Of a DNA stretch of 64,000 nt, positions 1,642 through 60,802 are shown in pieces. The notes beneath the pieces were generated by a model, which did not search any database, was not told where the DNA came from, and saw nothing but the letters and a program-made list of their open reading frames with translations. This DNA comes from Escherichia coli (GTDB taxonomy: Bacteria; Pseudomonadota; Gammaproteobacteria; Enterobacterales; Enterobacteriaceae). The first letter of the stretch is position 1; every line of letters begins with the position of its first letter. The DNA lies in NCBI RefSeq assembly GCF_003334385.1, contig NZ_QOWN01000005.1; one strand, 5' to 3'. The translations under genes and the position numbers were made by a program.

Positions 1642-3394
1642 CTGTCCCCTCGCCTTGATTAATCACAAATTCATTTTTATCGCCCGTTGTCAGCGCATCC
1701 GGCTCGATGTTCATGGTACGCAATACGCCGCCCATGATGGCACCAAAGACCGGCGCGGAAACGGCGCCGCCGTAGTATTTACCCGCCTGCGGATCGTTGA
1801 TAACAACAACCAGCGCGAAGCGCGGCTGACTCGCAGGCGCAACGCCTGCGGTATAAGCAATATATTTATTGATGTAGCGACCGTCCGGCCCGACCTTTTT
1901 CGCGGTACCGGTTTTAATGGCGATACGATAGCCTTTAATCGCCGCCTTCACGCCGCCGCCGCCTGGTAGCGCCACGCTTTCCATCATATGCACCACAGTG
2001 CGGACAATGGATTCCGGGAAGACACGTTCACCGGGAACCGGGGGGTCAACTTTGGTAATCGACAGTGGGCGATAAATGCCGTAGCTGCCGATAGTTGCGT
2101 AGACTCGCGCTAACTGTAATGGTGTTACCATTAGCCCGTAGCCGAAAGAGAAGGTGGCCCTCTCTATGTCAGACCACCGTTGTTTTTGAGGATATAAGCC
2201 ACTGCGTTCTCCGACCAACCCCAAATTGGTCGCTTTTCCCAGTCCAAAACGTGAGTAAGTATCTACTAACGCTGAGGACGGCATCGCTAACGCCAGCTTG
2301 GAAACACCGACGTTACTCGACTTCTGTAATACCCCGGTCAGGGTTAATTCGCTGTAGCGTGCCACGTCTTTGATTTCGTGGCCGTTAATTCGATAAGGAA
2401 TGGTATTGAGTACCGAGTTTTCCCGCACCACGCCACGTTGCAACGCGGTCATTACCACCATCGGTTTAACCGTTGAGCCCGGTTCAAACACGTCGGTGAT
2501 GGTACGGTTACGCATCGCCTCTTTCGGCGTGCCGCTCAGATTGTTAGGGTTGTATGACGGGCTGTTAGCCATCGCCAGCACTTCACCGGTGTTGACATCC
2601 ACCAGCACGGCGCTACCAGATTCAGCCTTGTTAAAGGCCACCGCGTTGTTCAGTTCGCGATAAACCAGCGCCTGCAGGCGTTCATCAATACTCAGCGCCA
2701 GGTTGTGCGCTGCCTGGCTGTCAGTAGAAGAAATATCTTCAATTACGCGACCATAGCGGTCTTTACGCACAATGCGCTCACCCGGCTGCCCGGTAAGCCA
2801 TTTATCGAAACTCTTCTCAACGCCCTCAATCCCTTGACTATCGACGTTAGTAAAGCCGATGAGGTGAGCAGTCACTTCGCCGGACGGATAGTAACGGCGA
2901 GACTCTTCACGCAGATGAATCCCCGGCAGTTTCAGTTTTTTGATGTAGTCCGCCATGTCAGGGTTCACCTGACGCGCCAGATAAATAAAGCGCCCTTTCG
3001 GGTTGGCGTTAATGCGGGCTGAAAGCTGATCCAGCGGAATATTGAGCGCGTTAGCCAGCGCCTTCCAGCGGTCACCGACGCTGATACCGCCAGCGTCATG
3101 CACTTCTTTCGGGTCAGCCCAAATCGCTTTTACCGGCACGCTCACCGCTAACGGGCGACCAGAACGGTCAGTAATCATGCCGCGGGAGGTGGAAACTTGC
3201 TGAACGCGAAGAGAACGCATGTCGCCCTCTTTCACCAGCATATCCGGGGAGATAACTTGTAACCACGCTACGCGTCCGAGCAGAAAAGCCAGCGCCAGGA
3301 GAATACAGCCGCATAACAACGCAAAACGCCAACTGATAAAGTTGGCATGTTCTTCCTGACGTTTTGGTTTCTGCGTTTTCGCCGCTGCTTTCAT
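1628..3394 (-). CDS. ftsI: Peptidoglycan D,D-transpeptidase FtsI (PBP3)
   Basis: 588-aa ORF; N-terminal membrane anchor; penicillin-binding motifs STVK, SSN, KTGT visible in translation; 14-nt overlap with murE start. Confidence 0.95.
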
Positions 3395-3409
3395 GCGTCG
3401 CGTTTATCC

Positions 3410-3775
3410 TTATTTTTGCACTACGATATTTTCTTGTGACGGATCAACATGCTGCATTTGCAGCTTTTCCGTGGCGATCCTTTCCACCCGGCTATGGTCG
3501 CCGAGCGCATTCTCTTCAAGGATCAGGTTGCGCCATTCAATGTCTAAAGCATCTCGCTCCAGCACCAGTTGTTCGCGCTGAGCGGTCAGTAAACGGGTAT
3601 GGTGCGCCGTGGTTACCACAGTCACCGCCGTCAAAATAATGCAAATGAACAGGCAGAGTGGCAGCTTCCCAAATCGCAAAAGATCGTCACCGATAACACC
3701 AGGCAATGCATGGCGCTCGTGGCTTCCCATCGATCCTTTAACTTTGCTTAGAGCTTCTGTCACTCTGCTGATCAT
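3410..3775 (-). CDS. ftsL: Cell division protein FtsL
   Basis: 121-aa [15 protein letters not shown]..., single TM segment, position between rsmH and ftsI. Confidence 0.93.
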
Positions 3776-22584: not shown

Positions 22585-22676
<92 letters not shown>

Positions 22677-27989: not shown

Positions 27990-28415
27990 GTAACACCTGA
28001 TGCGACGCTGACGCGTCTTATCTGGCCTACACGCTGCGATTTTGTAGGCCGGATAAGCAAAGCGCATCCGGCATTCAACGCCTGATGCGACGCTGGCGCG
28101 TCTTATCAGGCCTACGCGCTGCGATTTTGTAGGCCGGATAAGCAAAGCGCATCCGGCATTCAACGCCTGATGCGACGCTGGCGCGTCTTATCAGGCCTAC
28201 GCGCTGCGATTTTGTAGGCCGGATAAGCAAAGCGCATCCGGCATTCAACGCCTGATGCGACGCTGGCGCGTCTTATCAGGCCTACGCGCTGCGATTTTGT
28301 AGGCCGGATAAGCAAAGCGCATCCGGCATTCAACGCCTGATGCGACGCTGGCGCGTCTTATCAGGCCTACACGCTGCGATTTTGTAGGCCGGATAAGCAA
28401 AGCGCATCCGGCACG
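27990..28415. repeat. Tandem array of five ~85-bp BIME units (paired inverted REP sequences) between araA and araD
   Basis: Unit boundaries about 27995/28080/28165/28250/28335; units 2-4 are identical 85-mers (gcctgatgcgacgctggcgcgtcttatcaggcctacgcgctgcgattttgtaggccggataagcaaagcgcatccggcattcaac), units 1 and 5 carry a few substitutions. Confidence 0.9.
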
Positions 28416-55744: not shown

Positions 55745-55830
<86 letters not shown>

Positions 55831-59607: not shown

Positions 59608-60198
59608 GTGAGCTATTACGCCTTTGAGGGGTTAATTCCGGTGGTTCACCCGACGGCGTTTGTCCATCCCAGTGCCGTCTTGATTGGCGATGTGATTGTG
59701 GGAGCCGGTGTCTACATCGGCCCACTCGCCTCACTGCGTGGTGACTACGGGCGGTTGATCGTGCAAGCGGGAGCCAATATTCAGGATGGCTGCATTATGC
59801 ATGGCTACTGCGACACTGACACCATTGTTGGGGAAAACGGCCATATCGGGCACGGAGCGATCCTGCATGGTTGTGTGATTGGTCGCGATGCATTGGTCGG
59901 GATGAACAGCGTGATTATGGATGGCGCGGTCATTGGCGAAGAGAGCATTGTTGCCGCCATGAGCTTTGTCAAAGCGGGCTTTAGCGGCGAGAAACGCCAG
60001 TTGTTGATGGGTACGCCAGCCCGCGCTGTACGCAGTGTTAGTGACGACGAGTTACACTGGAAACGGTTGAATACCAAAGAGTATCAGGATCTTGTCGGGC
60101 GCTATCATGCATCGTTACATGAAACGCAGCCGTTGAGGCAAATGGAGGAAAATCGCCCCCGTTTGCAGGGGACAACGGATGTGACGCCTAAACGGTGA
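59608..60198 (+). CDS. caiE: Carnitine operon protein CaiE (hexapeptide-repeat/gamma-carbonic-anhydrase-like)
   Basis: ORF track frame from GTG 59587; GTG 59608 after aagga RBS gives (M)[33 protein letters not shown]; start choice uncertain. Confidence 0.85.
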
Positions 60199-60201
60199 TC
60201 T

Positions 60202-60377
60202 TGCCGGATGCGGCGTAAACGCCTTATCCAACTCTGCTGGAGAGCAACCGTAGGCCGGATAAGATGCGCCAGCATCGCATCCGGCGATAGCTGTCGGATG
60301 CGGCATAAACGCCTTATCCAACCCGGCTGGAGAGCAACCGTAAGCCGGATAAGATGCGCCAGCATCGCATCCGGCGA
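60202..60377. repeat. Two tandem ~86-bp BIME units (each an inverted REP pair) between convergent caiE and caiF
   Basis: Unit A 60202-60287 and unit B 60292-60377: t(g/t)(c/t)cggatgcggc(g/a)taaacgccttatccaac(t/c)c(t/g)gctggagagcaaccgta(g/a)gccggataagatgcgccagcatcgcatccggcga. Confidence 0.85.
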
Positions 60378-60406
60378 CCAGGTCGCACGGTATCATCGAA
60401 ATGACA

Positions 60407-60802
60407 TTAACGACGCATACTCTTTGACAACATCATCTGCCACTTCTGCTCGCGGTTAAGTTCCGTGAGCGGAACGGCAGGAATACTCGGTGTCTTTCTT
60501 ACGCCGACTAATTTTTCCCGACTGTTATTGCGCAGGCGCGCGTAAATTTGTTCATCGATATCGACCACTTTAACCAGTCGCTGACACTGGCATCCCCGCC
60601 CTTCCAGCTTATTAGGGATCATCTTAACTTCGCAGCTTATTTCTGTGACTTCCGACAGAATATAAGTCAGGGTATTAACCGCCTTGCTGTGTTCAATATC
60701 GAAATGAATAGAGATCTCTCTTGCTATCACCCACCGATTTTCAGCCATCATCCATTCGGCGATTAACAAGTAGAGTGGTTTTTCAACATATCCTTCACAC
60801 AT
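60407..60802 (-). CDS. caiF: Transcriptional activator of cai/fix operons
   Basis: ORF track frame 60407..60907; 131-aa protein from MCEGYVEKPLYLLIAEWMMAENRWVIAREISIHFDIEHSKAVNTLTYI. Confidence 0.9.
   Translation of the reverse strand: MCEGYVEKPLYLLIAEWMMAENRWVIAREISIHFDIEHSKAVNTLTYILSEVTEISCEVKMIPNKLEGRGCQCQRLVKVVDIDEQIYARLRNNSREKLVGVRKTPSIPAVPLTELNREQKWQMMLSKSMRR

Follow-up and report, generated by a model that had tools for sequence, protein, structure and literature searches.

In E. coli, REPs are found in BIMEs of more than one kind. BIME-2 elements consist of y and z2 units in tandem copies whose number varies between strains, and BIME-1 elements of a single Y and Z1 pair joined by a long conserved L linker with an IHF site (PMC3333891). 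Binding of the REP-associated transposase TnpAREP needs a GTAG foot and a stem mismatch; the enzyme cleaves and recombines BIMEs in vitro, and a model of BIME amplification has been proposed (PMC3333891). The araD-A BIME, a known polymorphic locus, has served as a substrate (PMC3333891). When located in 3′ UTRs, REPs block 3′-to-5′ exonucleases and act as partial Rho-dependent terminators, and the array REP325 is both a partly Rho-dependent terminator and a stabilizer of upstream mRNA (bioRxiv 10.64898/2026.03.23.713779). A REP is present in 207 of the 704 convergent gene pairs of K-12, such pairs are more highly expressed, and 78 REPs fall within mapped bidirectional terminators (bioRxiv 10.64898/2026.03.23.713779). 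The same work reports large variance from locus to locus and no uniform effect of REPs on half-life (bioRxiv 10.64898/2026.03.23.713779).

The array considered here lies near position 60,000 of a window of 64,000 nucleotides of E. coli DNA (contig NZ_QOWN01000005.1, assembly GCF_003334385.1), where caiD and caiE on the + strand are followed by caiF on the − strand, caiE and caiF being convergent. Gene identities were taken from the RefSeq annotation of near-identical genomes, in which caiE likewise has 591 nt and the same end base. The caiE ORF (59608..60198, + strand, with its TGA at 60196-60198) is the last gene of the caiTABCDE operon, and caiF (60407..60802, − strand, 396 nt as annotated) encodes the transcriptional activator of carnitine metabolism. 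Between the two gene ends, at 60198 and 60407, is an intergenic spacer of 208 bp (60199..60406), the length given in an earlier reading of this DNA from its letters alone (the sequence-only reading). The array, at 60202-60377, falls wholly inside this spacer and is strictly extragenic, as REPs are by definition. REP-derived ORFs running over it (e.g., 60208-60459 on the + strand, 83 aa, and 60115-60396 on the − strand, 93 aa) were dismissed as repeat artefacts. Across 1.2 kb, the sole mismatch between the window and ECCHD184 is at 60487, in codon 106 of caiF, where the window has T and ECCHD184, BL21, ST648 and K-12 have G; the T gives S106 instead of R106 in CaiF, and could be a private mutation or a sequencing error.

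Tandem Repeats Finder reported a single array at 60205-60377 (period 90, 1.9 copies, 95% matches, score 318), and a repeat search placed two 86-nt copies, 94% identical, at 60202-60287 and 60292-60377. The five mismatches over 86 positions are at 60204, 60215, 60233, 60235 and 60253, which bears out the sequence-only description of two near-identical units of about 86 bp in the 208-bp spacer, most of which they occupy. Unit 1 (60202..60287, + strand) is made up of a Y REP, a tail-to-tail linker and an inverted Z2-like REP, and its sequence is that of the single unit of O157:H7-type strains. Its Y-type REP (GCCGGATGCGGCGTAAACGCCTTATCCAAC, 60203..60232, + strand) matches the Y consensus with 2 mismatches (0 expected by chance) and has a degenerate foot, AAC for GGC, with no CTAC tail. 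The 17-nt tail-to-tail linker (TCTGCTGGAGAGCAACC, 60233..60249) is the most variable part among alleles. The Z2-like REP (60250..60285, − strand) has the tetranucleotide GTAG at 60250-60253 on the + strand, matches the Z2 consensus with 0 mismatches at 60254-60285, and aligns end to end with hairpin 2 (Z2) of the Rfam naRNA4 model, in which hairpin 1 is Y-like. A 7-nt head-to-head junction linker, GA-TAGC-T (60286..60292), stands between the units and is diagnostic of alleles with at least two of them. Unit 2 (60292..60377, + strand) has the same layout, with a Y REP at 60293-60322, a linker at 60323-60339, a GTAA at 60340-60343 that is a mutated GTAG, and a Z2-like REP at 60344-60375. Hence the foot tetranucleotide is intact in unit 1 and altered in unit 2, and the complementary CTAC is absent from both Y REPs; the stem mismatch is present in the predicted folds of the REPs.

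The Y consensus has three matches in the window, including 60203-60232, and the Z2 consensus has eight, including 60254-60285 and 60344-60375; neither had any match in 100 shuffles of the window. The two consensus strings agree with the Rfam naRNA4 consensus. The window has further REPs of these types at 22587, 27995-28366 and 55747-55828, the last being a Z2 and Y pair and the first (22587-22616) a lone Y-type REP. The Z2-like REPs of the caiE-caiF array have CCGG/CCGG at the stem base, whereas the Z2 consensus has CCTG/CAGG there. Repeat finding, consensus matches and the naRNA4 model agree on a tandem BIME of inverted REP pairs, as had been proposed from sequence alone. Y and Z2 alternate in orientation, as judged from the full-length alignment to the naRNA4 model, with a stem-base G rather than T in the Z2-like unit, and the tandem copies vary in number, with two here and a remnant, one, two or three elsewhere. 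The array between caiE and caiF belongs with the ordinary BIME-2 REP arrays of E. coli, a long-known repeat type. It shares with the BIME-2 family (Gilson/Bachellier, per PMC3333891) the alternating inverted Y/Z2-type units, the tandem pair, the short linkers, an extragenic site flanked by convergent genes, and strain-to-strain differences in copy number. It departs from that family in the stem base of the Z2-like REP and in the foot of the Y REPs, and because of the CCGG stem base, the degenerate Y foot and a shorter head-to-head linker it may count as an “atypical BIME” under a strict classification. BIME-1 was rejected as a class, given a linker that has only 17 nt and is not of the L type, a partner REP of Z2 length, and an element that is tandemly repeated; inspection of the linker TCTGCTGGAGAGCAACC by eye found no WATCAANNNNTTR-like (IHF-type L) motif.

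A comparable array within the window is the araA-araD BIME array (27995-28367), which has the same tandem Y/Z2 arrangement, also matches the naRNA4 model, and is likewise a polymorphic locus. It differs in having an 85-bp period, four to five near-identical copies and a position between co-oriented operon genes, and in that its Z2 REPs have the canonical CCTG/CAGG stem base, unlike those of the caiE-caiF array. Four of its Z2 REPs are canonical and identical and a fifth is degenerate; its four naRNA4-model matches, on the + strand, score 60.2 bits.

We counted units at caiE-caiF in 5,426 complete E. coli genomes. Coverage of a 601-nt query did not separate genomes with one unit from those with two, and a 60-nt junction query and a synthetic three-unit query were used. 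An 85-bp spacer of the K-12 type is present in 1,893-1,898 genomes (35%), among them MG1655 and W, and at least one full unit in about 3,258-3,499. The two-unit junction was found by the 60-nt query in 766 of the 5,426 (14%), at one place per genome, including BL21/B, C, ST648 and the allele of this window. Three units occur in 1 genome, EH10-18-47, with a 298-bp spacer. By subtraction, one-unit genomes make up about 50%, O157:H7 and the B2 strain F11 being examples. Spacers in other E. coli strains measure 85, 118, 119, 205, 208 or 298 bp. Copy number at caiE-caiF is therefore polymorphic in E. coli, with alleles of an 85-bp remnant, one, two or three units. The sequence-only reading had expected strain variability and had named an identical arrangement in all E. 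coli strains as the observation that would speak against it; the genome comparison found the contrary. It had also put forward, with low confidence, a shorter spacer in K-12, which is indeed 85 bp (34696-34780 in NC_000913.3). The K-12 allele keeps the first 10 nt of the Y REP together with a diverged Z-like REP and is a decayed remnant, and the MG1655 RefSeq record has no REP annotated in the caiE-caiF spacer. The very same two-unit allele recurs in hundreds of public genomes, those of E. coli B and C among them.

Spacer length can mislead as to unit number. In CNREC_004-43 (L004) the 205-bp spacer consists of one unit and an insert of about 87 bp, which mimics the two-unit length; alleles of this type were found in roughly 1 in 40 sampled genomes. 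The insert is 100% identical to the terminal segment of copies of IS1397, an insertion sequence known to target REPs, and it occupies the same REP position as an insertion in strain Ch1 (L065), where a full IS1397 lies in the loop of the unit 1 Z2 REP.

The duplication had been called recent in the sequence-only reading, and here the evidence goes the other way. On such a view, a one-unit BIME would have been duplicated in tandem, by slippage, in the lineage of the window alone. The view can draw on the identity of unit 1 to the single unit of O157:H7-type strains, and on the fact that a truly recent extra copy does exist, in EH10-18-47, where the middle unit differs from the third by 1 nt and the third is identical to unit 2 of the window; this three-unit allele looks like the only clearly recent amplification in the comparison. 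The two units of the window, however, differ at 5 of 86 positions and those of strain 300444 at 8 of 86, within-genome differences as large as those between alleles of different lineages. The junction GCGA-TAGC-TGTCGG is the same in all examined E. coli alleles with at least two units, that is, not only in B/BL21, C and ST648 among the 766 genomes but also in alleles with diverged surroundings: strain 300444 differs from the window at 32 of 1,201 positions, and AZ147 at 15, with a different right-hand REP. In one-unit E. coli alleles the unit is flanked by ...TGATCT (followed by TGCCGG) on one side and, beyond ...GGCGA, by CCAGG on the other, and the 4-nt linker TAGC cannot be derived from either flank by duplicating any 90-bp segment of these alleles as they now stand. 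A related junction and an identical string recur outside this set, in L011 and in Escherichia whittamii, as described below. The recent-duplication view is thus already largely refuted, and we regard it as very improbable.

Comparison beyond typical E. coli came from a CaiF scan that took one genome per GTDB species. L011, a separate species representative that carries the label E. coli, has two units in the same register, joined by GCGA-TCAC-TGTCGG. By our reading, a simple duplication of the L011 flanks (TCAT) would differ from this junction by one substitution; these flanks are 95.8-96.5% identical to the window, or about 4% diverged. In E. whittamii (L007) there is one unit, and caiE ends in ...GCGATAG followed by CTGTCGG (about 2397-2520). 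This 14-nt string, made up of the caiE stop (TAG) and its flank, matches the E. coli junction exactly; compared with the left flank of other lineages it is shorter by 2 nt. The E. albertii NBRC 107761 contig (L009) ends inside caiF beside the spacer, so that the comparison covers Escherichia lineages other than E. albertii; such a contig end is consistent with the repeat breaking short-read assemblies.

On the simplest reading of these junctions, the two-unit array would predate much of the Escherichia radiation. In E. whittamii a deletion between two GCGATA repeats may have removed unit 1, with the junction supplying the stop codon of caiE; most one-unit E. coli alleles would likewise be deletions from a two-unit ancestor, through unequal crossover between units; and the K-12/W and L008 alleles would represent independent decays of the Y REP. 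The direction assigned to these duplications and deletions relies on comparing junctions and flanks across a few lineages and could be blurred by recombination between lineages. The alleles are mosaic, unit 1 of the window being nearer to unit 2 of 300444 than to unit 1 of that strain, and from unit alignments aimed at the order of duplication, deletion and gene conversion we conclude only that the array is old and recurrently rearranged. Taken in this sense, the sequence comparisons show that the two-unit state is an old, widespread allele and not a recent strain-specific duplication. Copy number probably shifts when homologous recombination pairs the 90-bp repeats unequally or when replication slips from one to the other. 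Amplification by TnpAREP is a possible alternative route but, we consider, a less likely one at this locus, since the GTAG/CTAC required in vitro is missing from the Y REPs and from unit 2. The fixed site, orthologous throughout Escherichia, argues against recent transposition of the array.

A second set of comparisons concerns the RNA that the array might encode. The head-to-head Y/Z2 hairpin pair across the junction (60253..60323, − strand) gives a full-length match to the Rfam naRNA4 model RF02564, which scores 70.7 bits (gathering score 59.5) and covers model positions 1-77 of 77. It runs from the Z2-like REP of unit 1 across the 7-nt junction into the Y REP of unit 2, a pair that exists only because the array has two units. 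The match is on the caiF-sense strand and, if transcribed, would fall in the caiF 3′ UTR. Above-threshold matches were restricted to alleles with at least two units (73.9 bits in L011, 63.6 in L062, and 70.7 twice in L064); the one-unit alleles L002, L005, L067, L007 and L004 were below threshold, as was K-12 (L003). One could suppose from this pattern that acquisition of the second unit creates an RNA gene, the Y/Z2 pair being cut from the caiF 3′ UTR as a small RNA of the naRNA4 type that binds HU and organizes the nucleoid; naRNA4 of REP325 has been reported to bind HU and condense DNA (PMC4550694). RF02564 was built from the Y/Z2 repeats of REP325 (PMC4550694), however, and matches any head-to-head Y/Z2 pair. 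The four further matches in the araA-araD array show how generic the model is, and it is in effect a detector of such pairs. The chromosome-organizing role of REP325 is itself now disputed, in a 2026 preprint from a group to which one author of the original naRNA4 work belongs: REP325/naRNA4 had no measurable effect on nucleoid compaction and acts locally (bioRxiv 10.64898/2026.03.23.713779). The caiE-caiF array resembles REP325, the yjdM-yjdN array of K-12, in its head-to-head two-hairpin Y/Z2 unit and its 3′ UTR position, but has one such pair instead of six, lies between convergent genes and not inside an operon, and has a head-to-head linker 6 nt shorter. A nucleoid-organizing RNA born at this junction consequently strikes us as a very remote prospect.

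Both strands of the spacer form the expected REP hairpins, with a stability far above that of shuffled sequence (-96 and -102.7 kcal/mol; z = -5.4 and -5.6 relative to shuffles), and at least one strong hairpin is kept in all alleles examined. A scan for intrinsic terminators (hairpin plus T-run) found none in the spacer, 60199-60406, and the array was rejected as an intrinsic terminator on this ground, the REPs having no T-run. Like bidirectional intrinsic terminators, it sits between convergent genes and has a palindrome that can be read as a hairpin from either strand, yet the Escherichia REPs differ from these terminators in having no flanking A/T runs, and any termination at the array would be Rho-assisted or partial. 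Our literature search on caiF/caiE terminators returned nothing relevant. The nearest terminator-like sites are both within coding sequence. One, inside the caiE 3′ end (60171-60156, − strand; CCCCTGCAAACGGGGG then CGATTTTCCT), is about 30 nt past the BIME in the caiF sense and could be the end point for caiF transcripts running through the REPs; the other, on the + strand, is inside caiF at 60487-60507.

The spacer holds a hairpin in every related genus examined. In Citrobacter there is a different, single, short REP (GCCGGATGCGCTCACGCTTATCCGGCCTAC); in Pseudocitrobacter and several Citrobacter species, a plain GCCGGATGG...CCATCCGGC hairpin; and in Yokenella, Atlantibacter and Proteus, a GC hairpin with flanking A- and T-runs. 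From these comparisons, the presence of a hairpin between caiE and caiF is conserved, the REP array being the Escherichia version. In Salmonella enterica subsp. diarizonae and arizonae (L026, L027) caiF is present and the sequence downstream of it is unrelated; caiE was not found within 2 kb downstream of caiF, and the cai-fix neighbourhood appears rearranged.

Our preferred interpretation, to which we assign a probability of roughly 85%, is that this is an array of the BIME-2 kind with two 90-bp units, an old polymorphic allele whose likely role is at transcript 3′ ends. The array would be a structured 3′-UTR element common to the convergent transcripts of the caiTABCDE operon and caiF. REP hairpins in RNA from either strand would block 3′-to-5′ exonucleases at the 3′ ends and cause partial, Rho-assisted termination, limiting read-through into the convergent neighbour; by analogy with REPs between other convergent genes, a terminator/insulator role, as suggested in the sequence-only reading, is plausible. 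Extra copies would add hairpins with probably little effect, and the difference in copy number is likely near-neutral, because 35% of genomes, including K-12, manage with a remnant. The 85-bp remnant of K-12 argues that the array, and certainly its second copy, is dispensable.

As regards the second copy, this account overlaps with one in which the array is purely selfish or neutral DNA, non-autonomous REPs spread and amplified by the REP-associated tyrosine transposase, serving neither caiE nor caiF and drifting in copy number. Much at the locus is compatible with drift: both the number of units and their sequence are free to vary, K-12/W and L008 show separate decays of the Y REP, the CTAC/GTAG foot is gone from the Y REPs of the window and is GTAA at the Z2 REP of unit 2, and IS1397 insertions are tolerated. 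The activity of TnpAREP on BIMEs in vitro and the amplification model proposed with it (PMC3333891) would supply the means. Against such an account, all genera examined have retained a hairpin at this position, and at least a Z2-like REP survives in every Escherichia allele seen; this retention suggests that some 3′-end structure is under selection even if copy number is not. We therefore treat an entirely functionless array as possible but doubtful.

The finding matters little beyond annotation, as a quantified example of known BIME copy-number polymorphism, REP decay and targeting of REPs by IS1397. The K-12 reference under-represents the locus, since its remnant is not annotated as a REP, and K-12-based REP catalogues miss a caiE-caiF REP array carried by about two thirds of E. 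coli genomes. Moreover, Rfam-based pipelines call an “naRNA4” gene here only in strains with at least two units. It is also conceivable, though in our estimation unlikely, that copy number tunes caiF and the cai operon through 3′-UTR stability and reduced convergent read-through, in which case the Y/Z2 hairpin pair born at the junction might be the active module. Were this true, strains such as B/BL21 and K-12 would differ heritably in anaerobic carnitine metabolism with coding and promoter sequences unchanged. If REP arrays do tune convergent pairs, the natural alleles of a remnant, one, two and three units at this one locus would make a convenient test series.
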